Notes: generated from the sequence alone by a model not told the origin. Shown: positions 22,322 through 47,190, counted from the first letter of the stretch. The stretch is 64,000 nucleotides of DNA from Burkholderiaceae bacterium (GCA_016790175.1 JAEUPI010000094.1:20967-84966); one strand, 5' to 3'. A program made the numbers and translations.

Positions 22322-23393
22322 ATGAGTGACGCTCTACAGCGCCAGTTCGGCTTGTTGCCAGAAGGCGGTGATGAGCGCCGGCCGGCGCTGCATCGACTTC
22401 AAGCGCCGGCGCGCGTAGTCGCTGACCCGATCGATGCTGCTGGCGCAGAAGTTGGCGATCTCGTGCTTCTTCAGGTACGCCCAGATCGCCTCGACCGGAT
22501 TGAGTTCGGGTGCATACGGGGGCAACGCCGCCAGTGCGAAGTGCCTGTGCTGCTTCTCGAGCCAGTTGCGCAGCACGCGGCTGCGATGCGTGGCCGCACC
22601 ATCCCAGATGATGAGCAGGCGCTGCTTGATCTGCTGCTTGAGCGCGGCGAGGAACTCGATGACCTGCTCGGACTTGATGGAGCCGTCGAAGAAGCGGAAG
22701 TAGAAGCGCCACCAGCTCAGCCCGGCAATGGCCGACATCTGGTTCCAGCTGAAGCTCTGCTGGATCACCGGCGTGCACCCGCGCTTGGCCCAGGTGCGCG
22801 TGACGGGGCACTTCTCCGACAGACCCGACTCGTCTACGAAGACGATCGTTCGGCGCTCGCGGCGCGCTTTTTCTTGAGCGCAGGCCAGGTCTTGCGCTTC
22901 CACTGGACGAAGGCCTGCTCGTCGCGCTGAGTGGCGCGCTTCTCGGGCATCTGCGGCGAGAAGCCCAGGCTGCGCAACAGCTCCCAGCAGCCGGTCTGGC
23001 TGTACTCGAGACTGAACTCGCGCTTGATGACAGCACGCACGCGCTTGACGGTCCACAGCTCGGTGGCGAAGCCCGCCTGCAGTGCGCCGGCCACCAGCGC
23101 GCGCGACAGCAGTTCGCACTGCGCAGCATCGAGCCGCTTCGGTCGTCCCAAGGGCCTGCCCTTGAGCTTGCCCACCGCGCCGTTGACCTCGGCAAGCTGT
23201 CGCGCCCACACGCTGACCGCCACGCCCAGCTCGCGCGCCACCTCGGCCTGCGGCACCTTGCGCTTGAGCATGCGCGCACCTGCAATGCGGCGCGCTGCGA
23301 TGGCTTCCATGTCCCGCTTCGTGCTCACTCGTGGTCTCCGGCATCAACGATACCGGCGCAGCGTTCGAGGTGCACGGGCGGTTGTCAACCATT
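22321..23393 (-). mobile_element. IS630-family insertion sequence (~1.07 kb)
   Basis: Flanked by TA at 22319-22320 and 23394-23395. Imperfect terminal inverted repeats AATGAGTGAC / AATGGTTGAC (8 of 10). Carries a two-frame DDE transposase. Confidence 0.85.
22334..23328 (-). CDS. IS630-family transposase, two overlapping frames (orfA 23328-22834, orfB to 22334) joined by a probable -1 frameshift
   Basis: N-terminal HTH part (...VPQAEVARELGVAVSVW...) and DDE part (TIVFVDESG...LIIWDGAATHRS...LPPYAPELNPVE). The frames overlap at AAGAAAAAG (plus strand 22867-22875). Confidence 0.85.
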
Positions 23394-23581: not shown

Positions 23582-23661
23582 GCAGCGATGCTCGCATGCG
23601 ACGCAAGCGCTTGTGTCGCGTCAAAATCCTGCCGGCCGTGAACGGGCCCACTGTGGGCTTG

Positions 23662-24111
23662 ATGAACATGAAGCACGCGCAAGCGCCGAACGAGCAGCCC
23701 GCGCCAAGCGAGCTGCCGCTGGTCTATGCCTGCTCGGGCTGCTCCAGCGCGGCGCAGCTCGCCAATCACCTGGCGGTGCGCCTGGACCGCGAAGGCGTGG
23801 CCGAGATGTCGTGCATAGCCGGCGTCGGCGGCAACGTGCGCAGCCTGGTGCGCAAGGCGCAGGCGGCGGCGGCAGCGGGGCGCCGCATCGTCGCCATCGA
23901 CGGCTGCGCACTGGCCTGCTGCGCCTGTGCACTGGCCTTGCGCGGCGTGACGGCCGACTGGCATCTGCAGCTCGCGCAGCACGGCGTGCGCAAGCGCTAC
24001 CGCACCGATTTCGATCCGAGCGAGGCGGCGCGCCTGCTGGCCGAGTTGCGCGACGCGCTTCCGAGTGCGGCATATCTGACGATGAGCGGCAGCACCCGGG
24101 CGCGTCGATGA
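23662..24111 (+). CDS. DGC-domain putative zinc-binding protein
   Basis: LVYACSGCSSAAQLAN...CIAGVGG...IVAIDGCALAC pattern. Confidence 0.7.
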   Translation: MNMKHAQAPNEQPAPSELPLVYACSGCSSAAQLANHLAVRLDREGVAEMSCIAGVGGNVRSLVRKAQAAAAAGRRIVAIDGCALACCACALALRGVTADWHLQLAQHGVRKRYRTDFDPSEAARLLAELRDALPSAAYLTMSGSTRARR

Positions 24112-26336
24112 CGCTCCCGGACCAGTTCGGCAAGTACGAGATCCGCCGCGTCATCGGCCGCGGTGCGATGGGTGTCGTCTACGAGGGTTTCGACCCGGTG
24201 ATCCGGCGCGCGGTCGCGATCAAGGCCGTTCGGCTCGATTCGAGCAGCGCCGAACTGGTGGCCGAGACGCTGGCGCGCGCGCGGCGCGAGGCGCAGGCGG
24301 CCGGGCGGCTCAACCATGTCGGCATCGTCGCCGTCTACGACTACGGCGAGGAGGTCGGCGAGCAGGGCGAACGCCGGCCCTTCATCGCGATGGAGCTGGT
24401 CGACGGGCGCGACCTGAGGTCGCTGCTCGAATCGGGCCACCGCTTCGACCCCGCGCAGGCCGCCGCGCTGATGACGGCCGTCCTGGCGGCACTGCAGCAC
24501 GCGCACGAACGCGGTGTCGTACACCGTGACATCAAGCCCGGCAACCTGCTGCTGCTCGGCGATGGCAGCGTCAAGATCACCGACTTCGGCGTCGCCCACC
24601 TCGAAGGCTCGGACCTGACGATGACCGGCGCGATGATCGGCACGCCGCAGTACATGGCGCCCGAACAACTGCTCGGCCAGACCATCGACGGCCGCGCCGA
24701 CCTGTTCGCCTGCGGCGCCATCCTCTACGAGCTGCTCGCCGGCCGCAAGGCGTTCAGCGGCAGCTACGCCAGCGTGGTCCAGAAGCTGCTCAACGAAGAC
24801 CCCGAGCCGCCTTCGCGGATCATGCCCGGGCTGGCGCCCGGCTGGGATTCGGTGTTGCGGCGCGCGCTCGCCAAGGACCGGGCCGAACGCTTCCAGAGCG
24901 CGGCCGAGTTCGCGGCTGCGATCCGGCAAGTGCCGCTGCCCACCACAGCCTTGCCCGACGACGACGCGACGGTGATTCTGCCGCGGCGGCACGCCGGGCC
25001 CACCGACCCGCGCACCGCGAAGACGTTGCCGGCCGCGCTGGCGGCGACGGTGCCGCCGGTGTCACTGGCGCATCCGGGCAAACCGCGCCGCTGGCCCGGG
25101 CTCGCCGCCGGGCTGGCCGTGGCCGCCGTTGTCGCGGCCGGCGGCTACGCCCTCTGGCCGCGTGAGCGGGCCGGACCGCCCGTGGTGACCAAGCCGCTGG
25201 GCGATCCGGCCCATGCCGAGCCGCAAACACCGCCACCGGTTGCGGCGCCGCCCGCGCCGGTCGCGGAGTCCATCGCGCCGCCGCCGCCACACCCCCCGAC
25301 TCCGCTCGACGAATGGCAGCGTCGCTGGGCCGAGCTCGACCCGCCGGGCGCCGCGAACGGCCTTGCCGACGGCCTGACGCTGCTGCTCGACCTGCGCGCA
25401 GCGAAGGACAAGGCGCTGGTGGCCGAGTTCGAACAGCTCTCGCGGCCGGCCGGCAACCCGGGCGCATTGGCGTTCGGCACCGCCGACGGCCGCGTCCGTT
25501 GGGCCTGGAGCTTGGCCACTGGCGGCGATGCGACCGCCGAGCGCAGCGCCTGCGCGAAGCTCGCGCTCGCACCATGCAGCGTCGTGATGAGCGACGGGCG
25601 TTTCCAGCCACCGGCCTTCCGGAAGTGGTCGCGGTCGCTCGGCAGCCGCAGCGTCGCCGAGGTCCGGGCTGCGCTGCTGCGCGCGCTGAACGCCGAACTG
25701 CCGGCGATGCGAACACGCTTGGCCGAAGCGAAGGCCCCGGCCCCGCCACCACCCGCCGCGCCGCCGGTGGCGACGCCGGTGCCCGCAACGCCGGTGCCGG
25801 AGGCGCCACGCGCGGCGTCGACACCGCCGGCGGCAGCGCCTGCACCGCCGGCATCACGCGCCGCGGCGACACCGCCGCCGGCATCGCGTGCCGCGCCATC
25901 GCCACCGTCAGCGCCACCGCGCTGGACCGACGAGCCGGTGCAGGCGCTGCGCGGCGAGTTCAGCCCGCAGACGTTGCGCGGCGCGCTCGCCGTGCTGCTC
26001 GACGCCCGCAGCGCCGACGACCTGGACACGCTCGAACACTTCGAGACCGCGATGAAGCGGCTGCCCTACCACAGCGCGCTCGCATTCGGCGAGCGCGGCG
26101 GGCAGATCTTTTATGCCTATGTTCGCCAGCGCAGGAGTGTCGACTGGGCCGGCGAGGAGGCGCTCGACCTCTGCCGCAACGTCACCGGCAGCTACTGCAA
26201 CCTGGTGATGGCCAGCGGCAGTTTTCGGGCCGACTCCTTCGTGTCGTTCGCCAACCGGCTCGGCCAGGCACCGCAGGGCAGCGTCCGCCAGGCCCTGCTC
26301 GGCACTATGCGCAGAAACCTCGAGCGCGGCATCTGA
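24108..26336 (+). CDS. Membrane Ser/Thr protein kinase with two tandem Cys-containing extracytoplasmic repeats
   Basis: ATGA overlap with the DGC gene. Hanks kinase motifs GRGAMGVVY, AIK, HRDIKPGN, DFG, APE; Pro-rich linker; TM WPGLAAGLAVAAVVAAGGYALW. Two ~130-aa repeats follow (ALAFGTADGRVRWAWS...CAKLALAPCSVVM and ALAFGERGGQIFYAYV...CRNVTGSYCNLVM), DUF4189-like by pattern. Confidence 0.85.
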   Translation: MTLPDQFGKYEIRRVIGRGAMGVVYEGFDPVIRRAVAIKAVRLDSSSAELVAETLARARREAQAAGRLNHVGIVAVYDYGEEVGEQGERRPFIAMELVDGRDLRSLLESGHRFDPAQAAALMTAVLAALQHAHERGVVHRDIKPGNLLLLGDGSVKITDFGVAHLEGSDLTMTGAMIGTPQYMAPEQLLGQTIDGRADLFACGAILYELLAGRKAFSGSYASVVQKLLNEDPEPPSRIMPGLAPGWDSVLRRALAKDRAERFQSAAEFAAAIRQVPLPTTALPDDDATVILPRRHAGPTDPRTAKTLPAALAATVPPVSLAHPGKPRRWPGLAAGLAVAAVVAAGGYALWPRERAGPPVVTKPLGDPAHAEPQTPPPVAAPPAPVAESIAPPPPHPPTPLDEWQRRWAELDPPGAANGLADGLTLLLDLRAAKDKALVAEFEQLSRPAGNPGALAFGTADGRVRWAWSLATGGDATAERSACAKLALAPCSVVMSDGRFQPPAFRKWSRSLGSRSVAEVRAALLRALNAELPAMRTRLAEAKAPAPPPPAAPPVATPVPATPVPEAPRAASTPPAAAPAPPASRAAATPPPASRAAPSPPSAPPRWTDEPVQALRGEFSPQTLRGALAVLLDARSADDLDTLEHFETAMKRLPYHSALAFGERGGQIFYAYVRQRRSVDWAGEEALDLCRNVTGSYCNLVMASGSFRADSFVSFANRLGQAPQGSVRQALLGTMRRNLERGI

Positions 26337-27034: not shown

Positions 27035-27361
27035 ATGACCGCTGCCACTGCCCCCGCCGCCACAGCCCTCGCCGCGATTGCCACCACCGTCGACGTGCGC
27101 GAACTCGCCCCGCGCGAGCGCCACCCGTTGATCCTCTCGACCTTCCAGCGCCTGGCGCGCGGGCAGGCGATGGAGCTGGTCAACGACCACGACCCGAAAC
27201 CGCTCTATTACCAGTTCCAGGCCGAGATGCCGGGCGACTTCGACTGGCGCTATCTCGAAGCCGGACCCGACGTCTGGCGCGTCGCGATCACGCGCACCGG
27301 CAATGCCGGCGCTTCGCGCGCGGTCGGCGGTTGCTGCGGCGGCGGTTGCTCGGGCACCTGA
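27035..27361 (+). CDS. DUF2249-domain protein (NO-stress regulon member)
   Basis: VDVRELAPRERHPLILSTFQRLARGQAMELVNDHDPKPLYYQFQAE..DFDWRYLEAGPDVWRVAITR; Cys/Gly-rich tail. Confidence 0.8.
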   Translation: MTAATAPAATALAAIATTVDVRELAPRERHPLILSTFQRLARGQAMELVNDHDPKPLYYQFQAEMPGDFDWRYLEAGPDVWRVAITRTGNAGASRAVGGCCGGGCSGT

Positions 27362-27408
27362 TCCACGCGCGACACGTCGACCCGGCGCGGCGGCGACACT
27401 GATCGGCC

Positions 27409-27900
27409 ATGCGACTGACCAGCTTCACCGACTACAGCTTGCGGGTGCTGATCTTCCTGGCGGCCGAGCCCGGGCGGCGCGCCACGATCGCCGAGATCAG
27501 CACCGCCTTCGGCGTCTCGGAGAACCACCTGACCAAGGTGGTTCATTTTCTGGGGCGCGAGGGCTGGCTCGCCACCGTGCGCGGCAAGGGCGGTGGAGTG
27601 GAGCTGGCGCTGCCGCCCGAGGCCATCGTCGTCGGCGCGGTCGTGCGTGCCGCCGAGGGCGGCGCGGTGCCGGCCGAGTGCTTCGGCGCCGATCGCGACG
27701 CGCTCGCCTGCTCGATCGTGCGGGTGTGCCGGCTGCGCGGCGTGCTGGCCGAGGCGGTGCAGGCCTTCGAAGCGGTGCTGGAACGCTACACGCTGGCCGA
27801 CCTGGTGCAGCACCAGCGCGCCACGCTGAGGCGGGTGCTCATGATCGCCCCCGGGGCCGGGGCAGGCCCGGCCCGCGCCGGCGCCGGAGGAACCCGCTGA
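27409..27900 (+). CDS. nsrR: NsrR, Rrf2-family nitric-oxide-sensing repressor
   Basis: MRLTSFTDYSLRVLIFLA...ATIAEISTAFGVSENHLTKVVHFL plus three Cys (ECF...ACSIVRVC) for the Fe-S cluster. Confidence 0.88.
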   Translation: MRLTSFTDYSLRVLIFLAAEPGRRATIAEISTAFGVSENHLTKVVHFLGREGWLATVRGKGGGVELALPPEAIVVGAVVRAAEGGAVPAECFGADRDALACSIVRVCRLRGVLAEAVQAFEAVLERYTLADLVQHQRATLRRVLMIAPGAGAGPARAGAGGTR

Positions 27901-29087
27901 TGGCCGGCTTCATCCCGATCGAGGAACCGCACCGCGCGCCGCCGCGCGGCTTCGCGTTGTGGCAGCTCGGCTTCCGGCCGTTCTATCTGCTGGCGAGCGT
28001 GTTCGCGTCGTTGTCGATCGCGCTCTGGGCGGCGCAGACCGCCGGCTGGATCCGGCCGCTGCTGCCCTCGCCGCTGCGGCACGCCCACGAGATGGTGTTC
28101 GGCTATACGCTTGCGGTGATCGTGGGTTTCCTGTTCACCGCCGGGCGCAACTGGACCAATCGGCCGACGCCCACCGGCGCCGCGCTCGCCGCGCTGGCCG
28201 GCTGGTGGCTGGCCGGCCGCGTGCTGGTGCTGACGCCCTACGCCAGCGCGGCGGCGATCGTCAACGCGACCTTCCCGCTCGCGGCGGCGGTGGCGCTGGC
28301 GATTCCGTTCTGGGCCGCGCGCAACCGGCGCAACTACTTCTTCGTCGCGCTGCTGGTGCTGCTGGCGCTGGCCAACGCGGCGATCCACGCCGCGAATGCC
28401 GGCGTGCTCACGCTGCCGGGCGCGCTCGGCGTGCAGGTCGCGCTCGACGTCGTCATCTTCGTGATGGCGGTGATGGGCGGCCGCGTGATTCCGATGTTCA
28501 CCAACAACGGCGTGCCCGGTGCCGGCGCGCTGCGCGACGTGCGGGTCGAGCGCGCCGCGCTCGGCTCGGTGCTGGTGCTGCTGGCGGCCGACGCGCTGCA
28601 GGTGCGGGCCGCTGCGATGGCCGCGGTGCTGGCCTTCGCCGCGCTGGCCCACGGCGCGCGGCTGGCGCTGTGGCATCCCTGGCGCACGCGTCGCACGCCG
28701 CTGGTGTGGTCGCTGCACGTGGCCTACGCCTGGATCGTGGTGCACCTCTTGCTGCGCGCACTCGCGGAGTTCGGTCTCGTCGTGCCGACGCTCGCTACCC
28801 ACGCGCTGACCGTTGGCGCGATCGGCGGCCTCACGATGGCGATGATGACGCGCACCGCGCGCGGTCACACCGCGCGGCCGCTGCGCGCCGACCGCGCCGA
28901 CGTGGCCTGCTACACACTCGTGCTGCTCGCCGCGCTGGTGCGCGTGGTGGTGCCGCTGGTCGCGCCGGGCGCCTGGCTGGCGGCCGTGGTGGCCTCTGCC
29001 GCCGCGTGGTCGGCCGCCTTCGGCCTGTACGCGCTGCACTACGGGCCGTGGCTGATCCGCCCGCGGCTCGACGGTGCGCCGGGCTGA
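27900..29087 (+). CDS. nnrS: NnrS haem-copper membrane protein
   Basis: Start overlaps the nsrR stop (TGATG); FRPFYLLASVFA..., about 12 TM helices, conserved His residues (RHAHEMVFGY). Confidence 0.85.
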   Translation: MAGFIPIEEPHRAPPRGFALWQLGFRPFYLLASVFASLSIALWAAQTAGWIRPLLPSPLRHAHEMVFGYTLAVIVGFLFTAGRNWTNRPTPTGAALAALAGWWLAGRVLVLTPYASAAAIVNATFPLAAAVALAIPFWAARNRRNYFFVALLVLLALANAAIHAANAGVLTLPGALGVQVALDVVIFVMAVMGGRVIPMFTNNGVPGAGALRDVRVERAALGSVLVLLAADALQVRAAAMAAVLAFAALAHGARLALWHPWRTRRTPLVWSLHVAYAWIVVHLLLRALAEFGLVVPTLATHALTVGAIGGLTMAMMTRTARGHTARPLRADRADVACYTLVLLAALVRVVVPLVAPGAWLAAVVASAAAWSAAFGLYALHYGPWLIRPRLDGAPG

Positions 29088-30014: not shown

Positions 30015-30467
30015 TCAACGATTGGCGAGCCGGATCACCGTAAAGCCTGCGGACAGGCGCTCCGACGAATAGGACGCCTTGGCGGTGAACATCTTCGACC
30101 CGATCCAGGTGCCCGCCGTGCCGGAGGTCGTGATCGTGAACGTCGCCTGGTCCCTGCCCGCCGGCACGGTGACGAACTGCGGCACGATGACACCGTCGAG
30201 CGCGAAGCCGACGCCCTCGATGGCCGTGCCGCCGGTCAGAGAGAGGTCTACCCGCAGGTCGCTGGCCGCGCGCCTGGCCAGCTTCACCGTCCCGGTGAAC
30301 TTCGTGCCTGCGGTGGCGGACGCCGGGCTCACGGCCATGCTGCTGAGCCAGCGGATCGTCAGATTGGGCGCGCTCTTGGGCAGCGGTGTCTGCGCGGGCA
30401 CAGCGATGGACAGTGTCACGCCCAGCAGCGCGATGGCCGTGGAAATCGCTCGCCTATGGATGCTCAT
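30015..30467 (-). CDS. Small exported beta-sandwich-like protein (150 aa), last gene of the secretin locus
   Basis: ATG at 30467 with RBS aggagc; signal peptide MSIHRRAISTAIALLGVTLSIAVPAQT; LSLTGGTAIEGVGF...VTVPAGRDQATFTITT resembles a Calx-beta/Ig-like strand pattern (weak). Confidence 0.65.
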   Translation of the reverse strand: MSIHRRAISTAIALLGVTLSIAVPAQTPLPKSAPNLTIRWLSSMAVSPASATAGTKFTGTVKLARRAASDLRVDLSLTGGTAIEGVGFALDGVIVPQFVTVPAGRDQATFTITTSGTAGTWIGSKMFTAKASYSSERLSAGFTVIRLANR

Positions 30468-30544
30468 GGTTGCTCCTTTCGAGAGAAAGCGCACCCGCGC
30501 CGGATCGGCCGTGGTGCAGGAATTCCGGACGCATCGCGACCCGA

Positions 30545-32362
30545 TCAGCGCAGGCGCGCCAGGGTGTCGCTGATCGCCTGCCGGGCAAGCCCCGCGTCCG
30601 TGGCCGCAGGCAGGTGCAGGTCGCTGGGCTGCGGCCTGAAATGCCAGGCGATCTTGTCGCGGATCTTGTCGGTCAACGCGTCCAGGTTGGCCAGCGGATC
30701 GACCAGATCCTTCCACACCGACAGCAGCCGTGTCAGCGTCTCGGCACGGAATGCGCGTGTGCCGGTGTCCAGGGTACCGGCCAAGCGCGGCGTGACGAGC
30801 ACGATCGCGGCGTCGCGGCTCTGGGTCTTCTGGCGTTCGTTGAACAGCAGGTTGCCGATGGGAATGTCGCCGACCACGGGCACCTTCGACGTCCAGCCCA
30901 CGTTCACCGCCTCGTAAAGGCCCGACAGGATCAGCGTCTTGCCGAACTCGACCTCTGCCGTGGCGCCGACGGTCTGCTTAAAGGTCGTCACCGACTCGGT
31001 GAACGTGCCGCTCGACGTGGGTACGAAGAACGAGCGCACGGTGTCGACGCGGAACTTCGTGCGTTCGCCGCTGATCTCGAGCGGCGTCAGCTTCACCGAC
31101 GTGCCGACGTCGATCGTCTGCAGTGCGCCGGTGTTGATGCCGCTGACCGCGACGCTCAAGGTGCGGCCGATGAAGAACTCGGACTGCTGGCCGAGCATGG
31201 CCACCAGCGACGGGCGTACGACGACGTCGTAGAAGTCGTCGTGGGTGTTGAACAGGTTCAGGCTGTAGGTGATCTGCGGCACCGTCAGCGCGGTGGTGAT
31301 CACCCGGCTGAAGGCATCGGCCGATCCCGTGCCGCGGCGCCGCTCGGTCTTGTTGTCGCCGCCGAACTGCAGCTTCAGGCCGTCCAGCAGGTTGATGCCG
31401 ACGCTGTGCTTCGTGGTGTCCTGACTCAGCAGCAGCGTGACCTCGACCATGACCTGCTGCGGCGAGTCGCCCGGCGCCCCGGCGTTGGCGGCCGGCGCTC
31501 GAGGCTGCGGTGCCGGGGTGTCCTGGGCCGGTGGGGCCGGTTGAGGGGTTTGGGCAAGTTGACCCGAATCGTCTGCGGCCGCCTCCGCTGCGATTCGCGT
31601 CGGCCGATCATCCGCCGCCGCCAGCACGGCAGTTCGCAGCAGCTGCGCGAAACGCGGCGTGTGGGCAGACAGCCCGCTCGACGGCAGCGCATTGGCGCGC
31701 TCGATCACCGCGGCCAGCCGCTGGCGGTCGCCCTGAGCCGCCGCCACAAAGGCCGACGCCCTAAGCATCAGCGGATCCTGCGGCGCCAGCGCGAGGGCCT
31801 TATCGGTGGCCACCCGCGCCACGCCGAGATCGCCGGCGTAGTAGGCCGAGGCGGCCAGCCCTGCGAACGCCTGCGGCGCGTCGGGTCTGTCCAGGATCGC
31901 CCACGCGAACTCCTCGGCTGCAGCTGGGTAGTTTTTCTGATCGAACCGCGCCAGCCCTGCGTAATAGTGCGACCAGAAGTAGCCCGGCGCGAACTTCACC
32001 GCCGCGTCGTAGCCCACCTGCGCCAGCTCCGCCGATTGCTGCGAGGCGTCGGCCAGCTGATAGTTGAGACCATTGAGCAGATGCAGGTACCCGTTCTGCG
32101 GCTCGGCCCTCAGCGCTGCCGTCAGCAGCGGGCGCGCGGCCTCCGGCTTGCCGTCGCGCAGCGCCGCGGCGATGTCGTCGCGCTGCGCGTGCCCGTGAGC
32201 CTGCGCCGCGCCTTGTGCGGCCGGCTGCGTCGCACAGCCTCCCAGGGCGAGCGGCAGGCTCAGCGCGACGATCGCCGCAACCGACAACGGCGTCAACCGC
32301 CAGCGGGTGTGCGTCGGCGCGCGAGGCGATGACGAGCGCGCGTCGTGCATGACAGTCTTCAT
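30545..32362 (-). CDS. Lipoprotein with N-terminal TPR domain fused to a secretin (T2SS/T3SS/T4P-type) C-domain
   Basis: Start MKTVMHD with RBS ggagga; lipobox LALGGC; ~200 aa of TPR-like repeats; Pro-rich linker. Secretin core runs QVMVEVTLLLSQD...GINLL... to the hallmark SKVPVVGDIPIGNLLFNERQ...IVLVTPRL. No N0/N1-type domains are recognisable. Confidence 0.8.
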   Translation of the reverse strand: MKTVMHDARSSSPRAPTHTRWRLTPLSVAAIVALSLPLALGGCATQPAAQGAAQAHGHAQRDDIAAALRDGKPEAARPLLTAALRAEPQNGYLHLLNGLNYQLADASQQSAELAQVGYDAAVKFAPGYFWSHYYAGLARFDQKNYPAAAEEFAWAILDRPDAPQAFAGLAASAYYAGDLGVARVATDKALALAPQDPLMLRASAFVAAAQGDRQRLAAVIERANALPSSGLSAHTPRFAQLLRTAVLAAADDRPTRIAAEAAADDSGQLAQTPQPAPPAQDTPAPQPRAPAANAGAPGDSPQQVMVEVTLLLSQDTTKHSVGINLLDGLKLQFGGDNKTERRRGTGSADAFSRVITTALTVPQITYSLNLFNTHDDFYDVVVRPSLVAMLGQQSEFFIGRTLSVAVSGINTGALQTIDVGTSVKLTPLEISGERTKFRVDTVRSFFVPTSSGTFTESVTTFKQTVGATAEVEFGKTLILSGLYEAVNVGWTSKVPVVGDIPIGNLLFNERQKTQSRDAAIVLVTPRLAGTLDTGTRAFRAETLTRLLSVWKDLVDPLANLDALTDKIRDKIAWHFRPQPSDLHLPAATDAGLARQAISDTLARLR

Positions 32363-32442
32363 GGGTTCCTCCGACGTTCGAGCGCAGACGGAAATCGGGC
32401 GTGGCCGCCTGACCGCAGGGCACCCGCCCGGGTGTGGGTCTG

Positions 32443-33753
32443 CTATGGAATACGTATCCGGATCTGGCACTGCGTGAAGGCGGGCCCCGACTCCGCGCCG
32501 CGCGCGCCGACCCAGAACTTCAGCGTGTGCGCCACCGGCGACGTTCGGCTGGCGCACGCAGTGCCCGCCGAGGTGTTGCCGCCCACTGCGCGAAATGGGA
32601 TCTGATGGAAGGTGCCGGTGGCCGGCGCCGTGAAGTTGCCCAGCCCGCTTGCGCTGCTGTAGATGACACTGGGCGAGCCGGAGGCCACGCACAGACGATC
32701 CTGCACCTCGAACTCGATGCGTTGCCCACCCGCCGGTGGCTGCTGCGACAGCCGGAGCTCGCACTGGAAGTTGTCGTTCGCGTTGACCGTGTCGCCGGTC
32801 GTCTGGTTGCGGCAGACGCAGGCCTGCGTGAACGCGTTCGCGGCCGGCGGCGGGTTGATCACCAGCGTCAGCGTGTCGGACCGGTTCGGGTTGGGCGTGG
32901 CGACGGTCAGCGTCGATGTGCGCGTGGCCCTCGTGCCGCGGATATTGGCGACGTCGCCGGTGAAGCGCATCACCATGTCTTGCCACGGCGGAACTCGCCG
33001 GATGTTGCCGCCGCTGACGAGCCTCACGTGCGCCGGCGACGTGACGGTGTAGCCGAACTCGCCCCAGATATCGATCTCACGCGGAAGCTTGCCAGCGACA
33101 CGCGTTCGAAACTCCAGCTCGCAATTGCTCGTGTCGCTGTTGGCGCCCGGTGGCAGCGTGATGGTCATGCGCGTGTTGTTGAGGTCCTGCACCACCGTGC
33201 CGATGTTTTTCGTCAGGCACTGCGACGGCCTCTGCACCAGTCCCGAACTTTCGAACGTCCACACCGGCGTGGAGAACGGCACCGCACGCATCTGCAGGCG
33301 CGACTCGTCGCCGAGGGGCATGCGGAATCGCAGCGAGCGCTGGCGCGTCGTCCCCGCCTCGGCGGGCGAGTCGACCTCGACCTCCACAGAGCCCTTGAGG
33401 ATCCTGCAGCCGCGCATCAGGTTCTCGGCCCCGTTGTGGGCCCGGATGATCCGCGCCGTGACGAGCGAATCGACGTTGCTGTCGTCAACTGTGACGCGGA
33501 CCGCCGGGCTGACGTCGATACCGTCGCCCCAGACTTCGAAGCGCATGTTGTTGCCGGCCTGCACCCGCAGGTCCTTGCCGTCGCCGATCGTGTCGACCTT
33601 GTCGCAAGTGCCGACCGGGGTGACGAATTCGACCGCCGCCCGGCTCGTAGCCGGCAACAGCGCGGCCGAGGCCGCCAGCCCGGCGACGATCATGGCGACG
33701 CGCGGCGACCATGACGAACGGCTCGCGGCGGATGGATGACGACACGCAGTCAT
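32443..33753 (-). CDS. Exported Cys-rich protein of unknown function (436 aa), first structural gene of the secretin locus
   Basis: ATG at 33753 with RBS aggaga; signal peptide ...VAMIVAGLAASAALLPATSRA; more than 10 Cys; no motif I recognise. Confidence 0.7.
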   Translation of the reverse strand: MTACRHPSAASRSSWSPRVAMIVAGLAASAALLPATSRAAVEFVTPVGTCDKVDTIGDGKDLRVQAGNNMRFEVWGDGIDVSPAVRVTVDDSNVDSLVTARIIRAHNGAENLMRGCRILKGSVEVEVDSPAEAGTTRQRSLRFRMPLGDESRLQMRAVPFSTPVWTFESSGLVQRPSQCLTKNIGTVVQDLNNTRMTITLPPGANSDTSNCELEFRTRVAGKLPREIDIWGEFGYTVTSPAHVRLVSGGNIRRVPPWQDMVMRFTGDVANIRGTRATRTSTLTVATPNPNRSDTLTLVINPPPAANAFTQACVCRNQTTGDTVNANDNFQCELRLSQQPPAGGQRIEFEVQDRLCVASGSPSVIYSSASGLGNFTAPATGTFHQIPFRAVGGNTSAGTACASRTSPVAHTLKFWVGARGAESGPAFTQCQIRIRIP

Positions 33754-33839
33754 GATCAGTCTCCTTCTATGTGAACGATGGGTGTTGCACGACGGGCCCT
33801 GCGACGCGGCCACCCGCTGTGGGCCAGTGCCGAGCCTGC

Positions 33840-33874
33840 ACGCTATCGGTGAGGCGTTTGTCGAGCGTTTGCCG
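33840..33874 (-). promoter_or_regulatory. Promoter with tandem 11-bp direct repeats (site 1): CGGCAAACGCT-CGACAAACGCC-N7-TAGCGT
   Basis: Repeats at 33853-33874, -10-like hexamer at 33840-33845, 87 nt upstream of the ATG at 33753. The same architecture occurs at 34163-34198 and 60796-60830. Confidence 0.6.
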
Positions 33875-33915
33875 GCGGCGGCACACGCGTGCGCACGTGA
33901 TCGGCCGAGCGCGAT

Positions 33916-34134
33916 TCAGCATGACTCCGGCCTCGTCGAAGGCGGCGCCGCAGGTTGCGGCGCGTCGTCGGCGGCGGGCGGCGGCGCCTCTGCGCTGGCC
34001 TCGCGCAGGAACTCGCCGAGCTGCGCCGGCTCGTCGAACAGCCGCGGCTCGTCCTGGTCCACGCTGCGCACGGCAGCTCGGAACTGGCTCAGGTGCTGCC
34101 ACACCCGCACGAGAAACAGCCGAGGTTCGCTCAT
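33916..34134 (-). CDS. Small cytoplasmic protein (72 aa), LFLVRVW...FRAAVRSVD type
   Basis: RBS ggag + ATG at 34134; no signal peptide; own repeat-type promoter. Colinear weak similarity to the 81-aa ORF at 43340-43585. Confidence 0.6.
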   Translation of the reverse strand: MSEPRLFLVRVWQHLSQFRAAVRSVDQDEPRLFDEPAQLGEFLREASAEAPPPAADDAPQPAAPPSTRPESC

Positions 34135-37057: not shown

Positions 37058-38602
37058 TCAGCGGCGCAGCTGCAGACGGCACGATTGCACCGCGCGTCGA
37101 ACGTGCCAAGCTTCGCAGCGTCGCACGCCGGACTCGTCGGCGCAGACGAAGTGCAGCGAGCCGCCGCGCGACATGCATCCCACCGCGGCCAGCTCGCGTT
37201 GCACGCCCGCTGGCGACGTCAGCGACTGCGGCGCCGGAGCGGCCACACCGGCCGCCGCGGCAGCGGTGACCGAGCGCTCGCCGGCAACCGGACCGGCCGC
37301 GGTCGGCGAGCGCTGTGGCACGGCCCCCGGCAGCAGATCGACCTTCGACGGTGGCCGCGGATGCGCCGGCTGATTCGCCGCCGAGACGCTGTAGACGCAG
37401 CTTTCGCCGACGCTCGCCATGAACGGCTTGCACGTCGCCATCGCGCTGGCGCTCGGGCAGCCGAGCCCCGGACAGACGCTGCCCACCAGCTTGGCGTCGC
37501 GGAAGGCCTTGACGAAGGCCGCCCTGTTGCCCTGCCAGAACACCTGGTTGCACCAGGTGTAGTTGCCGATCAGCTTCAGCTCGGCCGCCTTGGCCGTGTG
37601 CGCGTTGACCCATCGCGTCACGTGCGAGTAGCCGAGCGTCACGAAGCGCTGGTTGCAGTACAGCGGCACCGACGTGGCAGGCAGCTTCTTGCTGTCGGAT
37701 TGGTAGCGCGCCCAGGCGTTGGCCGCGGCCAGTGCCACCGAGCCGGCGCCGTTGAAGTTGACGCGCTCCTTGGTCAGCTGCGGCAGCACCTGCTGGACCA
37801 CGTGTGCCGACCACTGTGCATCGAGCGCCTTGTCGTACACCTCGACCGCCTTGCCGATCTCGGCATCGGCGTGGCCGCCTGCCTTGGCCTTGGCCTTGAT
37901 CGAATCGACCAGCTTCTGCAGCGCCCACAGGTCCTCCGACTCGATCGCCGTCAGCCCCTCCGGCAGCAGGCGCGGCTTGAAGTACTTCTCGTACACCTGC
38001 TGCGATTTCGGCTTCGGCGGCGGCCCGCTGCTGTCGCAGCCACCGAACAGCTTGCCGGCCGTGGCGCAGTAGCCGTCCTTCGCGACGTTGTAGGCGCCTT
38101 CGCCGAGATCGGCGAAGAACTCCGCCACCGCCTTGCCGCCCGAGTAGACATCCTTGGCGAACTCGATCAGCTCGGCGATCAGCGCGCAGGCGTCGGCGCC
38201 GCCGAGCAGCACCTGCACCACCGCGCAAGTGGCCGCGGCACCGAGGTGATAGGCCACGCCCCAGTAGTCCTTGTCCTTGTAGGCGATGTAGGCATCGACC
38301 GCCTGCCAGAACGACGACGGCACGCCGGCTTCGTTCGACGCCTTCTTGCCGAGCGGCGTGTCGTGGAAGCTGTCGACGCAGACCACCGGATCGGTCTTCC
38401 CCGAGGCGAGGCAATCGAAGAGACCCTTCGACGCCGCGAGATCGGCTGCCGATACCGGCAGCGAATTCGGCGGCGCGGCCTTGTCGATCTTCTGATAGGT
38501 ACTGATGAAGTCGTCGAGCGTGTCGGCGCGTGCCGGGCCGGGTGCGAGCCAGGCCAGCGGCAGCAGCAGGACCAGCGCCACCATCGACCCGAACCGCCGC
38601 AT
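37058..38602 (-). CDS. Exported Cys-rich protein of unknown function (514 aa), last gene of the CsgG-like operon
   Basis: ATG at 38602 with RBS; signal peptide MRRFGSMVALVLLLPLAWLAPGPARA; about 20 Cys; no recognisable domain. Confidence 0.7.
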   Translation of the reverse strand: MRRFGSMVALVLLLPLAWLAPGPARADTLDDFISTYQKIDKAAPPNSLPVSAADLAASKGLFDCLASGKTDPVVCVDSFHDTPLGKKASNEAGVPSSFWQAVDAYIAYKDKDYWGVAYHLGAAATCAVVQVLLGGADACALIAELIEFAKDVYSGGKAVAEFFADLGEGAYNVAKDGYCATAGKLFGGCDSSGPPPKPKSQQVYEKYFKPRLLPEGLTAIESEDLWALQKLVDSIKAKAKAGGHADAEIGKAVEVYDKALDAQWSAHVVQQVLPQLTKERVNFNGAGSVALAAANAWARYQSDSKKLPATSVPLYCNQRFVTLGYSHVTRWVNAHTAKAAELKLIGNYTWCNQVFWQGNRAAFVKAFRDAKLVGSVCPGLGCPSASAMATCKPFMASVGESCVYSVSAANQPAHPRPPSKVDLLPGAVPQRSPTAAGPVAGERSVTAAAAAGVAAPAPQSLTSPAGVQRELAAVGCMSRGGSLHFVCADESGVRRCEAWHVRRAVQSCRLQLRR

Positions 38603-38676
38603 CGTCGTGCCCGGAGGTGCCACGCGGTTCGGTGTGCAACCTCCGGGCTGCGAGCACCGTTCGGAGCGGTCCGTGC

Positions 38677-39333
38677 TCATGGCCGGCTCCCCGCCGGCGT
38701 GGCGCGCTGCCCGGTGGCCGCCGCCAGCTCGCGCTTGATTGCGCCGACCGTGACGCGCCGGCCCGAGGGCGACTCGAGCACGGTGTCGTCGGGCCGTGAC
38801 AGCACCGCGCGCCAGTCGGTGCGGGCGTCGACGCGCAGTACCCGTCCCGCCGCCGGCTGGCCGGGCGCGGTCACGGCGCGGCCGAGCCGGGCTTCGACGC
38901 GCGGCATCACGAAGCGCAACTGCTCGGCCGTCACCGTGCGGCCGGACGGCAGCTGGAACACCTCGGTGCCGGGCCGGCGCAGCGCGTCGTTCAGGTCCTC
39001 GCCGCTGCGCAGCGGCGTGCCGCTGCGCCCCGGCGGCGCGACCAGCCCGGCCGGTGCCGCACGCTCGCCGCCGCGCATGCGGCTCGCGGCGGCGTCCAGG
39101 CGGCGCAGATCGCCGACACGCATGCGACGGTTCGGCGCGAACTCGACGATGTCACTGTCGGCGCGGCCGGCAAGCGAGCGCGCGGTCATGGCCGGCGTGT
39201 AGGGGATGACGGCCCTCGATGCCGCGGTGGCGCGTGCCGGCGCCTCGGCAGCCGCGAGCGCCGGCGCGCCGGGCGCGAGCATCGCCGCGGCCGTAACGGC
39301 CGTCCGGGCCGCGATCAGGAAGCGTGCGTCCAT
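38677..39333 (-). CDS. Exported protein (218 aa) with three short internal repeats
   Basis: Signal peptide MDARFLIAARTAVTAAAMLAPGAPALA. Repeats FAPNRRMRVGDLRRL / QLPSGRTVTAEQLRF / ESPSGRRVTVGAIKREL. Confidence 0.65.
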   Translation of the reverse strand: MDARFLIAARTAVTAAAMLAPGAPALAAAEAPARATAASRAVIPYTPAMTARSLAGRADSDIVEFAPNRRMRVGDLRRLDAAASRMRGGERAAPAGLVAPPGRSGTPLRSGEDLNDALRRPGTEVFQLPSGRTVTAEQLRFVMPRVEARLGRAVTAPGQPAAGRVLRVDARTDWRAVLSRPDDTVLESPSGRRVTVGAIKRELAAATGQRATPAGSRP

Positions 39334-39364
39334 GTCGAGGTCCTCTCTCGAATCCGAATCCTGC

Positions 39365-40609
39365 TCAGCGTGAACCCGAAGGCATGTGCAGCCGACCGGC
39401 GGCTGCCGGCGCGGTGCCGTCCTGCGCCGGGCTGAAGCGCAGGTTGTCGGTGGCTGCGGCCTGCGGCGGCGGCAGCGGCGCACCACCGCACAGTCCCGCG
39501 ACGCTGACCGTCAGCATGAATTCGTTGTTGGCCTTGCTGGCTTCCTTCAGCTGGTTCAGCGGGTCCAGGCGCAGCCGCAGCTTGTTGACGCCCGGCCGCA
39601 GACCGATCGTGTCGACGCGGCTCACCGCGGCCCCGGCGGCGATCGCCGGCGTCTGCGCCACCTGTGCGCCGGGGCTGCCTTCGACCGTCCACTGGCGGTC
39701 CGATGCGGGGCTGCCGGCCGCGCCGAGGTTGCGGACCTCGTGTTCGAACGCGACCTGGCACACGCCGTTGGCGGTCGTGCGCGCGTCGGTGTCGGGCAAT
39801 GCGAGCATGGCGCCCGACGCGGCGCTGTGCTTGCCGGCGACGACGACGCGCGCGCCGCTGGCCAGATCGGGCAGCGCCGCCCCGATCGCAGGCAGGGTCG
39901 CGAGCCGTCCCCTGCCCGGCGCCGTCATGTCCGCACCGGGCTGCGCCGTCGCGTCTGGCGTGCTCTGCCCCGCTGCGCCCGTCTTGCCCCGGGGCAAGGG
40001 CGGCGTCTGGACCTGCTGCGCCGCCATCCGGCCGGACGGTGACACCGGCTTATTCATCGCTGCCAGCTTGTTCGCCTCGGCTCCGGTCGTGGCCCTCGAC
40101 AGCAGCGGGCGATTCTTCTCGGCGGGTACCGAGAATCCCGACCAATCGGTGAGGTTCTTGAATTCGAGCCGCACGCACGGGTCGTCTTGGACGACGGGGT
40201 CACCCGTGCACTTGAACTCCGAGCGCAAGGTGCCCGAATGTTTCTTGCCCGGATCGGTCAACTTCACCAGCTCTTCGAGCCGGCTCGCGCCCGAATGCCA
40301 GGTAACCCGAGCCTCGGCCCACAGCGCCGACTCGCCTGTATTGGGCGCGGCCACGCCTGCCTTGACGTGGTCGACCCAGATCTTGCAGATGCCGTCGAAC
40401 CAGTAGCTGCGCGTGCGGGCGGCGGCATCGTCGGTCACCTGCTTCAGCTTGAAGCTGCCGCAGTCGGCCATGTGCTTGACGAGGTGCGTCTTGTCGACGG
40501 TCGTGGTCGTGCTCGAAAAGCCGAGCGCCGACACCGCCTGCGGCAGGCACAGCGCCGCCGGCAGCAGCGCCGCGCCGGTAACGCGCCGCGACAGAAGAGC
40601 GATCGTCAT
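39365..40609 (-). CDS. Exported protein (414 aa): Cys-containing N-domain, Pro/Ala linker, CARDB-like C-terminal beta-sandwich
   Basis: ATGA overlap with the upstream gene; signal peptide. C-terminal ...CQVAFEHEVRNLGAAGSPAS...GAAVSRVDTIGLRPGVNKLRLRLDPLNQLKEASKANNEF resembles CARDB. Confidence 0.65.
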   Translation of the reverse strand: MTIALLSRRVTGAALLPAALCLPQAVSALGFSSTTTTVDKTHLVKHMADCGSFKLKQVTDDAAARTRSYWFDGICKIWVDHVKAGVAAPNTGESALWAEARVTWHSGASRLEELVKLTDPGKKHSGTLRSEFKCTGDPVVQDDPCVRLEFKNLTDWSGFSVPAEKNRPLLSRATTGAEANKLAAMNKPVSPSGRMAAQQVQTPPLPRGKTGAAGQSTPDATAQPGADMTAPGRGRLATLPAIGAALPDLASGARVVVAGKHSAASGAMLALPDTDARTTANGVCQVAFEHEVRNLGAAGSPASDRQWTVEGSPGAQVAQTPAIAAGAAVSRVDTIGLRPGVNKLRLRLDPLNQLKEASKANNEFMLTVSVAGLCGGAPLPPPQAAATDNLRFSPAQDGTAPAAAGRLHMPSGSR

Positions 40610-41238
40610 GGCAACACCTTCTTGGCGTTCAGCTCGACCTGAGTGGCATATGCCGCGAGCTGCTGGCTCAGAGCCCGGGCCTCGGCGGCGGTGGCCGCCG
40701 CCGTCTTCTGGAACTCCTGCAGCGAGAAGCCGATCTTGGCGTTGCCGGCGCCTGCGTTGGGCAGCCTGACGCCGCCGGCGGAACCTCCGCCCAGACCCAG
40801 AACCGGCAGACTCGTGCTCTGGTAGCTCTGCAGGCAGTGTTTCAGCAGCTTGTCGGAACACTGCGCCACCGTGTCGTTGGCGGTGCAGCCGGCCTTGGTC
40901 TGATCCTGCACGCTGTACGACTTGTTCGCGCATTCCTGCGCCATGCCCGGAACGGCTTTGACCATCGACTCGAAGGCCTTCGCGTCGCCGGAGAACTTGT
41001 TGAAGTCTTTCGCGAGCGTGTCGAGCCCAAGAGCCGGAATGACCAGGCGCGGCACGTTGCCGGGCGACAGGCGCAAGTCGCCTTTCAGCGGGGCCGCCAC
41101 GGCCTGGCGTGCCGGCCCGGCAGGCGCAGGCGTGGGCGTGTTGCGTGCGTTGTCGGCCGCGCTCGCGGCGGCCGAGGCCAACGACGTCACGATGGCGGCG
41201 GCCCGCAGTGCCGCGCAGAAGGGACTGGTGTGCTGCAT
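40606..41238 (-). CDS. Exported protein of unknown function (210 aa), four-Cys helical region
   Basis: Signal peptide MQHTSPFCAALRAAAIVTSLASAAASA; ...AQECANKSY...KAGCTANDTVAQCSDKLLKHC... Confidence 0.6.
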   Translation of the reverse strand: MQHTSPFCAALRAAAIVTSLASAAASAADNARNTPTPAPAGPARQAVAAPLKGDLRLSPGNVPRLVIPALGLDTLAKDFNKFSGDAKAFESMVKAVPGMAQECANKSYSVQDQTKAGCTANDTVAQCSDKLLKHCLQSYQSTSLPVLGLGGGSAGGVRLPNAGAGNAKIGFSLQEFQKTAAATAAEARALSQQLAAYATQVELNAKKVLP

Positions 41239-41250
41239 CGCGTCCTCCGT

Positions 41251-41997
41251 TCAGGGCTCGAACCGTCTGGCCAGCTGCAGCACCGCCTCGTCGATCACCG
41301 CGCGCAGCGCCGAGTCGATGCCTTCGCTATGGCGCTGCTGCGCCTGGACCTCGGGCGTGTAGGGCGACGACTTGCCGCGCTGCGCGAGGATCGTGCCGAT
41401 CAGGCTGCTCGTGCCGCTGACGCCGGCCTCGTCGGAGCGGATCGACCTGCGTACGCTGACCGCATCGACGATGTCGCCGTTGCCGGCGTCGACGATGCGC
41501 ACGTCGATCGCGATCGTGTCGCGGTTGCTGCTGCCGCCGAGCTGCGCACCGGCAACGCCGACGCCGGCCGAGCGCTGCCGCTCACCGGCGTTGGTCTCCG
41601 ACAGCGTGCCCTCGAAGACATACTGCGCGCCGCGCAGCGTCCGCGCCGCCGCCTTGCCCGACGCCAGGCCGCTTAGCTGCAGCTGCTTCTCGCGCATCAC
41701 GCCGTCGTTCAAGCGCGCGCGCTCGACGACGCGGAACTGTCCGCTCTGCACGAGCGCGGTCTTGAACATCTCGGTCGCCGATCGGGCGCTGACACCCGGC
41801 AGCTCGGTGCGGACCTCGTAGAGGGTCACCGCGACGCGCTCGCCGGCCTTGCGCGGCAGCTTCTTCAGCGCCTGTGCGCCGACGGTCGCATCGGCGCGCG
41901 CCGGCTGCGCGGCCAGCGCACCCATTGTCTGACTGCAGGCGGCGAGCACGACGCCGATGGCGGCGGCGAGCGCCAGGCGGAGGCAGGGATGCTTCAT
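41251..41997 (-). CDS. CsgG-family outer-membrane lipoprotein (curli-type secretion channel fold)
   Basis: Lipobox VLAAC; ERVAVTLYEV...SATEMFKTALVQSGQFRVVERARLNDGVMREKQL; GAQYVFEGTLSE...; DTIAIDVRIVDAGNGDIVDAVSV. Colinear with the CsgG family. Confidence 0.8.
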   Translation of the reverse strand: MKHPCLRLALAAAIGVVLAACSQTMGALAAQPARADATVGAQALKKLPRKAGERVAVTLYEVRTELPGVSARSATEMFKTALVQSGQFRVVERARLNDGVMREKQLQLSGLASGKAAARTLRGAQYVFEGTLSETNAGERQRSAGVGVAGAQLGGSSNRDTIAIDVRIVDAGNGDIVDAVSVRRSIRSDEAGVSGTSSLIGTILAQRGKSSPYTPEVQAQQRHSEGIDSALRAVIDEAVLQLARRFEP

Positions 41998-42026
41998 CGT
42001 GGTGACTCCTCGTGGACGACAGTGCC

Positions 42027-42734: not shown

Positions 42735-42750
42735 CGTGGGCACCGGTTGC

Positions 42751-47118: not shown

Positions 47119-47176
47119 GCGACGCGGACAGTATCGCGACGCCGCTCGGCGACGGGTTGGCGCGGCTGACGGGCGG

Positions 47177-47190
47177 TTGACTGCGATCAG
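47177..47190. promoter_or_regulatory. FNR-like box TTGAC-TGCG-ATCAG in the divergent SARP/ubiU intergenic region
   Basis: 8 of 10 match to TTGAT-N4-ATCAA. Lies 109 nt upstream of the ubiU ATG and 59 nt upstream of the SARP ATG. Confidence 0.45.

Follow-up and report, generated by a model that had tools for sequence, protein, structure and literature searches.

A lipobox-bearing tetratricopeptide repeat-secretin fusion without N-domains from a Burkholderiaceae bacterium belongs to a large, widespread and unnamed secretin clade

Secretins are textbook parts of multi-protein, ATP-driven and envelope-spanning machines, to which they are coupled through their N-domains. Here, we analysed a 64,000-nucleotide stretch of DNA from a Burkholderiaceae bacterium (GCA_016790175.1, JAEUPI010000094.1:20967-84966; G+C approximately 70%), hereafter the window, in which a minus-strand gene at 30545-32362 encodes a 605-amino-acid (aa) protein joining a lipobox and a tetratricopeptide repeat (TPR) domain to a secretin barrel. 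This TPR-secretin is a member of the secretin superfamily and belongs to a large, widespread, unnamed secretin clade. Our data are consistent with a model, tentative and in our judgement somewhat short of an even chance, according to which the TPR-secretin is a self-targeting liposecretin through which folded periplasmic proteins encoded nearby are exported in the absence of a pilus motor.

The TPR-secretin starts with a signal peptide and lipobox (residues 1-43; 32234..32362, minus strand as all following domains) with the sequence LALGG-C43 followed by A-T-Q. C43 is the sole cysteine of the protein and is retained by at least 90% of 81 relatives; in the wider clade, a lipobox-like motif is present in 92 of 126 full-length proteins. 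The lipobox cysteine and the lack of an inner-membrane retention residue constitute, as judged from the sequence, a lipoprotein signal for the outer membrane. The TPR domain (residues 53-265; 31568..32206) contains approximately six repeats matching Pfam TPR_16/TPR_2, with several Pfam TPR models covering residues 64-234, and carries the strongly conserved motifs NGYLHLLNGLxY and VGYDAAVKFAPGYYW. AlphaFold2, run on an 81-sequence alignment, predicts a TPR superhelix for residues 53-265 with predicted local distance difference test (pLDDT) values above 90, followed by a Pro/Ala/Gln-rich linker (residues 266-300; 31463..31567), which is disordered in residues 270-297 (pLDDT below 50), falls into gappy, variable alignment columns and differs in length among relatives. 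The secretin beta-barrel/gate domain (residues 301-527; 30782..31462) starts directly with QQVMVEVTLLLSQ, having no N3 domain ahead, contains the secretin motif SKVPVVGDIPIGNLLF quoted in the initial annotation and is matched by the Pfam family Secretin (PF00263; residues 379-527, 65.6 bits, cut-off 27.5). Residues 303-527 are predicted to consist exclusively of beta-strands, parts of the barrel being modelled at moderate confidence only in the monomer. A family-specific C-terminal tail (residues 528-605; 30548..30781) is located where an S-domain would be and shows three predicted helices within residues 540-604 (540-553, 560-575 and 590-604). The tail is conserved in the close family with W550 and D581 being invariant, and its conservation is visible in the wider clade as FRxGD...W, while a search of the PDB returned no sequence match of these last 75 residues to any solved structure.

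Comparison of the predicted fold with the PDB by Foldseek ranks approximately 40 secretin structures ahead of any TPR protein (E 1.5e-13 to 1e-8), the matches to secretins of type II secretion systems (T2SS), type III secretion systems (T3SS), type IV pili (T4P), Tad pili and phage (pIV) having a probability of 1.0 (E 1.5e-13 to 5e-8). Among these structures are the Acidithiobacillus caldus secretin, PulD, ExeD, GspD, InvG, RcpA, PilQ, BfpB and pIV. A sequence profile search of the PDB gives GspD (3e-14) and RcpA (8e-14). The initial annotation had allowed for structural models revealing the C-terminal domain not to be a secretin, which did not occur, as the barrel/gate fold matches the solved secretins. 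In the GATE1 region (residues approximately 400-417), pairwise HMMER alignments show the segment between FFIGR and IDVG to be shortened by six residues relative to E. coli K-12 GspD and by nine relative to P. aeruginosa XcpQ, suggesting a shorter inner-gate hairpin.

The TPR-secretin does not possess the ring domains typical of secretins. Pfam gives no match to Secretin_N, STN, AMIN, BON or pil_N and we found no VirB9-like domain in the 605-aa protein, nor does the pilus-secretin N-domain family PF13629 match it. The AlphaFold2 model contains no alpha/beta domain of the N0/N1/N3-type between the TPR domain and the barrel, the only element in this region being the disordered linker. In agreement with this, the NCBIfam models for GspD, SctC, PilQ, HofQ and MshL match the C-terminal barrel only and far below their cut-offs: the GspD model TIGR02517 scores 44.1 bits compared to a cut-off of 351.35, with the alignment being restricted to model positions 335-588, and the PilQ model TIGR02515 scores 38.4 bits compared to a cut-off of 284. 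Model scores, N-domains and operon context thus all place the TPR-secretin outside the GspD, PilQ, RcpA/CpaC and SctC families, and no curated Pfam or NCBIfam family spans the whole protein. The architecture of lipobox, TPR repeats, Pro-rich linker and secretin core lacking N0/N1-type rings, which the initial annotation had read from the sequence, is therefore supported at every point by Pfam, AlphaFold2 and Foldseek and, for the missing rings, by the GspD model aligning only from position 335; the hidden Markov model searches and structure prediction it had asked for yield a TPR domain plus a secretin and no N-domains.

This architecture is widespread. The close family comprises approximately 100 clusters at 90% identity, which share 32-90% identity with the window protein and with few exceptions have a length of 540-625 aa. 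Among GTDB species representatives, it is encoded in 42 loci from Burkholderiales (Rubrivivax, Ideonella, Rhodoferax, Piscinibacter), several gammaproteobacterial lineages including Nevskiaceae and a few other bins, with cultured carriers being Hydrocarboniphaga effusa AP103 and Sinimarinibacterium sp. CAU 1509. A wider search with residues 298-605, i.e. barrel and tail, against 1.84 billion representatives at 50% identity returned 3505 matches at E ≤1e-3, 492 at E ≤1e-10 and 78 at E ≤1e-30. The top 150 of these are mostly 530-810 aa in length with the barrel beginning at residue approximately 230-490, and the consensus of the wider clade shows the lipobox, a TPR motif LHFLNxLxYHL and the C-terminal FRxGD...W. 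In a Pfam scan of 80 clade relatives, all 80 contain Secretin and at least 57 contain TPRs, while Secretin_N, STN, AMIN, BON or the pilus-secretin N-domain are found in none of them; 17 of the 19 families matched in total are TPR-type or TPR-containing. Profile searches identified further cultured hosts, i.e. Sphingobium sp. CAP-1, Sphingomonas canadensis, Sphingomonas sp. J315, Novosphingobium sediminis, Erythrobacter tepidarius, Asticcacaulis spp. and Aquisalinus luteolus, and one Elusimicrobia metagenome-assembled genome (MAG) also encodes a TPR-secretin. The members are labelled in their sources as 'hypothetical', 'secretion protein', 'tetratricopeptide repeat protein' or, automatically, 'PilF/TadD/CpaC'. 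Our search of the full-text literature, in which subscription journals are mostly outside coverage, did not turn up any account of a secretin fused to TPRs or of a secretin standing alone.

The size of the clade bears on a possible origin from phage, according to which the TPR-secretin would derive from, or be what is left of, a pIV-type secretin of a filamentous phage, or would be a decaying secretin fragment without function. pIV is compact, has a barrel of similar size and gives weak matches. We nevertheless rejected this as very improbable on the grounds of a phage-record search and of full-length conservation: 50,697 phage records contain no TPR-secretin, the barrel alone matching at approximately 25% identity, there are no phage genes nearby, and strong purifying conservation extends over the full length including the TPR domain in hundreds of clusters.

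In the window, the TPR-secretin gene is the third of four minus-strand genes arranged head to tail from 34134 to 30015, which were all found with the sizes and positions initially given. p72 (33916-34134; 72 aa), the first gene of the run, encodes a cytoplasmic protein without signal peptide and is followed by p436 (32443-33753; 436 aa), the TPR-secretin gene and p150 (30015-30467; 150 aa), with intergenic gaps of 162, 80 and 77 nucleotides (nt), respectively. The same four frames are given by public gene calls on matching contigs (uncultured Burkholderiaceae bacterium GCA_044222585.1 and a JGI contig). Antisense frames are also open in the GC-rich DNA of the locus. In nucleotide alignments, mismatches to relatives accumulate at codon position 3, amounting to 1159 compared to 722 and 627 at the other two positions for p436 and 149 compared to 89 and 50 for p72, showing that both are real genes rather than antisense shadow open reading frames (ORFs). 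Gene calls based on GC content at third codon positions preferred antisense shadow ORFs over p436 and p150 in related loci; this method was dropped and frames in these loci were settled by public gene calls, homology clustering and the codon-position substitution test. A scan for promoters and terminators over 29.7-34.5 kb of the window yielded no signal exceeding shuffled expectation.

No secretion machinery is encoded next to the TPR-secretin. Pfam searches over the called genes and ORFs of the window, leaving a few obvious metabolic genes unscanned, revealed no ATPase, pilin, platform protein or prepilin peptidase of such a system; the gene content consists of nos genes, cytochromes, nitric oxide (NO)-response genes, a kinase, a methyltransferase, HlyIII, a CsgG-like cluster, a STAND regulator and aromatic-catabolism genes. 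We furthermore screened all six frames of 951 kb, comprising the window and 50 fetched locus records (including few duplicates; numbered with the prefix L below) with flanks of up to 8-10 kb, for motifs. Neither the Walker-A motif G.[TS]GSGK[ST] of GspE/PilB/PilT/TadA-type ATPases nor a type IV prepilin N-terminus was found, and the sole secretin motif is that of the TPR-secretin itself. As the screen for ATPases and prepilins was run without a positive control, we also inspected annotated contexts: 11 annotated or Pfam-scanned loci from diverse lineages contain no T2SS, T4P, Tad or T3SS machinery gene except for one T2SSC-domain gene. This lone GspC-type gene (13725-14627 of L054, a metagenomic contig) is located 3 kb from the TPR-secretin gene with a malate synthase gene in between and no other gsp genes in view; it is the only type II secretion component near any family member inspected and its placement is probably coincidental. 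The prediction of a locus devoid of ATPase, platform protein, pilin and prepilin peptidase is borne out by both approaches. In contrast, the view of this context as unusual holds in one respect only: the secretin is an orphan at every related locus examined, but such loci are not rare, forming a large and widespread clade without a name.

These results bear on an alternative in which the TPR-secretin is the outer-membrane component of a T2SS, T4P or Tad machine encoded elsewhere, with the TPR domain being a built-in pilotin and the neighbours being incidental. All characterised secretins serve such machines. Moreover, TPR pilotins belong to type IVa pilus and Tad systems (PMC10499894), some clade members carry the labels 'PilF', 'TadD' or 'CpaC', one locus has the T2SSC-domain gene at 3 kb and our inspection was confined to 8-10 kb around each gene. 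However, the N0/N-domains needed for docking to GspC or PilP are missing here and in 80 of 80 clade members, an ATPase or pilin was found within approximately 8-10 kb in none of approximately 50 loci even though T2SS, T4P and Tad secretins are normally operon-encoded, and the flanks consistently contain exported non-pilin proteins. We therefore judge this alternative to be unlikely.

The genes flanking the TPR-secretins encode exported proteins. Of approximately 20 immediately flanking genes whose N-termini we inspected in well-called loci, almost all encode Sec signal peptides and most encode several cysteines. In the window, p436 has a signal peptide ending in ...LLPATSRA|AVEF and 11 cysteines, ten of these in the mature part and eight conserved. 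AlphaFold2 predicts an all-beta protein (pLDDT 90) with three tandem immunoglobulin (Ig)-like beta-sandwich domains at residues approximately 40-157, 163-299 and 312-433; Foldseek returned generic Ig/cadherin/PrgB-Ig matches only, giving no functional hint. p436 homologues form 88 clusters and a p436-like protein or its N-domain is encoded beside the secretin in 14 of approximately 45 loci, the N-domain adjoining TPR-secretins in alpha-, beta- and gammaproteobacteria. On an Asticcacaulis plasmid, a 463-aa p436-like protein adjoins the secretin (hhalign probability 95.6%, E 1.2e-8). In a Rubrivivax MAG (L008, 6519-7866), the p436 homologue is split across three overlapping ORFs, reflecting either a pseudogene or assembly frameshifts. 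p150 has a signal peptide and no cysteine, and its sequence suggests a single Ig-like domain; homologues occur in five loci; they immediately follow the secretin in three gammaproteobacterial loci and lie close to it in one other Burkholderiales locus. p72 is conserved over its N-terminal 45 aa (LFLVRVWQHLSQFRAAVR...), its homologues adjoin the secretin in 13 loci, all from Burkholderiales, and its role is possibly regulatory. p72, p436 and p150 have no Pfam or NCBIfam match, and p72 has no sequence match in the PDB.

The neighbours in other loci are different in sequence and similar in kind. An exported domain of approximately 140 aa with 12-14 conserved cysteines, which we call c3, is encoded beside TPR-secretins in 18 loci (records L006-L014, L022, L030-L038 and L043; e.g. 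L031 9434-9955 and L011 7231-8160, minus strand). It follows the pattern CFGAxGxxCG...HDxCC...W.KA..R...GL.W.R...CAP...CCS...LRC[RQD], occurs free-standing in Nevskiaceae and as the C-terminal part of a fusion with a CarboxypepD_reg-like domain in Burkholderiales, has no Pfam match of its own and is not present in the window. Further neighbours are a 1127-aa Big_9/cadherin protein, a DUF11 and CARDB protein, a Jacalin and Big_3_5 lectin, and Tectonin as well as Tectonin and Fn3 giants, with one cluster encoding a DsbA-like oxidoreductase; in Elusimicrobia, a Zn-phospholipase-C-like protein is encoded 28 nt upstream of the secretin. The association is therefore strong in kind, involving exported and often disulfide-rich beta proteins, without a fixed gene set. 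This qualifies the initial description of the 436-aa, 150-aa and 72-aa proteins as partners of the secretin: all three are present and the first two are exported, but none is universal and other loci carry different exported proteins.

A recurrent neighbour could also be a part of the channel instead of its cargo. According to this alternative, the neighbours are structural accessories, such as a periplasmic ring or a surface cap replacing the N-domains, and the substrate is something else. The presence of the p436 N-domain beside the secretin in three proteobacterial classes and of the Cys-rich c3 domain in 18 loci speak for it, as do the accessory proteins of classical secretins, i.e. TsaP, RcpB/C and PilP, and the suitability of tandem Ig-like domains for building a ring or stalk. 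We nevertheless regard it as improbable, as there is no universal neighbour family, as lectins, giant Fn3 proteins and a phospholipase-C-like enzyme resemble secreted products and as p436 homologues exist in Acidobacteriota with no secretin within approximately 3-8 kb. Two of the latter (L049 2963-4234 and L050 8001-9317) are divergent from genes encoding Ser/Thr-kinase and TPR domains and are near other Ig-like proteins, the one in L050 being also near CARDB/Flg_new_2 proteins and an ECF sigma factor. This kinase-TPR pairing echoes the wHTH-kinase-TPR regulators encoded beside the TPR-secretins of Nevskiaceae.

Under the export model, the TPR-secretin would be exported by Sec, lipidated at C43 and transported by Lol to the inner leaflet of the outer membrane. 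Lipoproteins whose lipobox cysteine has no Asp at position +2 are sorted to the outer membrane by Lol. In this membrane, the C-terminal domain would assemble into an oligomeric secretin-type pore, with the fused TPR domain replacing a separate pilotin of the PilF/PilW/TadD-type. The PilF-like TPR lipoprotein TadD holds the C-terminus of RcpA in a groove and is required for secretin assembly (PMC10499894), and the lipid anchor alone can pilot the secretin HxcQ, according to Viarre 2009 as cited in PMC12475490. In a similar way, the TPR domain may grip the helices of the conserved C-terminal tail, either within its own subunit or in an adjacent one. It may in addition serve as a docking site in the periplasm. 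N0-type domains couple secretins to GspC or PilP (PMC10499894). With no N0/N1/N3 ring and no ATPase, platform protein or pilins ever being encoded along with it, the TPR-secretin probably does not dock onto an inner-membrane motor. Sec-exported, disulfide-bonded and folded beta-sandwich neighbours would cross the outer membrane through the pore, the candidate clients being p436 and p150 here and Cys-rich-domain proteins, lectins, Fn3/cadherin-like giants and the phospholipase-C-like enzyme elsewhere. The shorter GATE1 may mean that the gate is less occluded or easier to open. Curli export of the CsgG-type and the TPR-porin exporters of polysaccharides are examples of export across the outer membrane without a local energy source. 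A more far-reaching and in our view rather doubtful version of the model is a motor-free 'secretin-only' route, in which folded, disulfide-bonded clients would be captured by the TPR domain and released through the outer membrane or to the cell surface; that such a route would be different from T2SS, T3SS, T4P, Tad and phage export we propose with similar reserve.

Several points weigh against the export model. Pore formation, lipidation and secretion are deduced from sequence and a monomer model, and we infer rather than observe outer-membrane targeting, multimer formation, self-piloting and the neighbours being cargo. The likeness of the TPR domain to pilotins is weak and generic: it contains the approximately six repeats and the lipobox typical of TPR pilotins, but the PilW model TIGR02521 scores 24.8 bits compared to a cut-off of 154 (E 1.4e-5, residues 33-224). 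The term 'self-piloted' used in the initial annotation is accordingly to be taken with care, as docking of cargo or a scaffold function would be equally plausible for the TPR part. The link to cargo is circumstantial, because the neighbours differ between loci, two loci (L052 and L054) have almost no candidate neighbour and the Acidobacteriota p436 homologues occur apart from a secretin. Machinery might be encoded elsewhere in the genomes, outside the flanks we viewed. Finally, no secretin is known to function without a piston, be it a pseudopilus, pilus, needle or phage, and with gate hairpins being present, albeit with a shorter GATE1, the model does not explain how the pore opens and what drives export.

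A TPR scaffold joined to an outer-membrane pore is also the logic of PelB, PgaA, BcsC and AlgK-AlgE, raising the alternative that the TPR-secretin is an exporter of an exopolymer, e.g. a polysaccharide, with the TPR domain guiding the polymer and the secretin replacing the porin. Secretins have been implicated in slime secretion of cyanobacteria and myxobacteria (PMC12475490), and the TPR domain gives weak matches to the PgaA and PrsT models. These matches are however far under the family cut-offs, the PgaA model TIGR03939 reaching E 0.17, and the inspected neighbourhoods contain no synthase, glycosyltransferase or polymer-modifying genes, making an exopolymer exporter distinctly improbable. 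A link to PEP-CTERM/exosortase systems was rejected, since the PrsT match reflects only generic TPR similarity and the neighbours have no PEP-CTERM tails.

Most TPR-secretin clusters also encode a regulator, the type of which differs between lineages. In Burkholderiales, these are STAND proteins composed of BTAD, NB-ARC/AAA_16 and TPR domains, in Nevskiaceae a wHTH-Ser/Thr-kinase-TPR protein, in one gammaproteobacterial group a LuxR-type regulator and in other lineages a response regulator with a histidine kinase or an HTH-TPR protein. In the window, a BTAD and AAA_16 protein is encoded at 44401-48285 on the minus strand, 10 kb upstream of the secretin genes; this STAND regulator shares 30% identity with those encoded next to the TPR-secretins of other Burkholderiales. 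Between it and the secretin genes lies a second outer-membrane-channel cluster (37058-42743, minus strand), built around a CsgG/LpoB-like lipoprotein (41251-41997) that is followed by proteins of 210, 414, 218 and 540 aa without Pfam families, with signal peptides on at least those of 210 and 540 aa. This cluster is preceded by three more unknown genes and the STAND regulator. A CsgG-like gene with small unknown proteins is also located 4 kb from the TPR-secretin gene on an Elusimicrobia contig (L053). In other Burkholderiales TPR-secretin loci, the STAND regulator is followed by a small ORF we call 'c19'; a small acidic ORF of the window (60257-60487, plus strand) is 75% identical to it over 77 aa and is located 26 kb from the secretin, beside genes of the UbiD/UbiX-type.

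The remaining window contains a Ser/Thr kinase gene (24108-26336) that we considered as a partner and rejected as unrelated, since the kinase groups with the Nevskiaceae regulators only via its generic kinase domain and its gene is separated from the secretin operon by NO-response genes. The 742-aa kinase contains a Pro-rich spacer and ends in an unknown domain that is repeated twice, and the start of its gene is overlapped by a gene for a DGC-domain protein (23596-26336 for both, plus strand); beside the kinase, an insertion sequence-type transposase is split into HTH_33 and DDE_3 ORFs (approximately 22334-23310). The NO-response set, consisting of DUF2249, Rrf2 family and NnrS genes (27035-29087, plus strand), is encoded on the opposite strand just downstream of the secretin operon. 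The window furthermore encodes a nitrous-oxide reductase cluster (3-11171, plus strand) with a NosZ fragment, cytochromes c, two NosD-like proteins, a 4Fe-4S membrane protein and an ABC ATPase and permease. At 50758-60028, a sigma-54 activator of the XylR/DmpR-type is followed by genes resembling those of anaerobic phenol/aromatic carboxylation, including a phosphoenolpyruvate-utilising enzyme; the UbiD-type and UbiX-type likeness of genes in this region is based on N-terminal sequences.

As a summary, we describe a large and widespread clade of secretins in which every N-domain has been dropped, a lipoprotein TPR module has been gained and only exported proteins are encoded alongside. If the clade works alone, it would constitute an undescribed route for folded proteins across the outer membrane, and the opening of a secretin gate in the absence of a piston would need an explanation. 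On a more conservative reading, the TPR-secretin is a natural fusion of pilotin and secretin, which would be useful for studying secretin targeting and assembly and would provide a compact secretin for structural or nanopore work. The cultured carriers, i.e. H. effusa AP103, Sinimarinibacterium sp. CAU 1509, several Sphingomonadales and Asticcacaulis, make the question directly testable. Many carriers are Burkholderiales of activated sludge, in which the adhesin- and lectin-like neighbours may matter in the formation of the floc or biofilm matrix.

Among the known systems, RcpA with TadD, and likewise PilQ with PilF/PilW/Tgl, are similar to the TPR-secretin in pairing an outer-membrane TPR lipoprotein with a compact secretin barrel, and RcpA is among its best sequence and fold matches. 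In contrast to these pairs, both parts are present here in one polypeptide with the TPR domain being N-terminal and a disordered linker in between, there is no VirB9-like, N0 or AMIN domain, no tad or pil genes are nearby and a 75-aa helical C-terminal tail replaces the short coil. The liposecretins HxcQ of P. aeruginosa and BfpB and TcpC of type IVb pili share the N-terminal lipobox on the secretin polypeptide, that of HxcQ being sufficient for pilotin-independent targeting to the outer membrane (Viarre 2009, as cited in PMC12475490), and BfpB is a Foldseek match of the TPR-secretin. These proteins however keep N0/N3 domains, are encoded in complete T2SS or type IVb pilus operons and have no TPR domain. 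With GspD, PulD and XcpQ, the TPR-secretin has the barrel/gate fold (Foldseek E approximately 1e-11; PDB profile E approximately 1e-14), the conserved VPxLGDIP motif and a C-terminal extension located where the S-domain would be in common, while it differs in the absence of N0-N3, in a GATE1 shorter by 6-9 residues and in having no gsp genes nearby.

Outside the secretins, PelB, PgaA, BcsC and AlgK with AlgE have a periplasmic TPR scaffold fused or attached to an outer-membrane pore and work without a dedicated energy source at the outer membrane. Their pore is instead a monomeric porin of 16-18 strands, the synthases are co-encoded and the cargo is a polysaccharide, so that the likeness is one of logic only. 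CsgG, the channel of curli or type VIII secretion, is similar in being an oligomerising lipoprotein channel that is not ATP-gated and exports Sec-delivered proteins encoded nearby. It provides a functional analogy for a motor-free export as we tentatively propose for the TPR-secretin, but differs in its unrelated fold and unfolded cargo.

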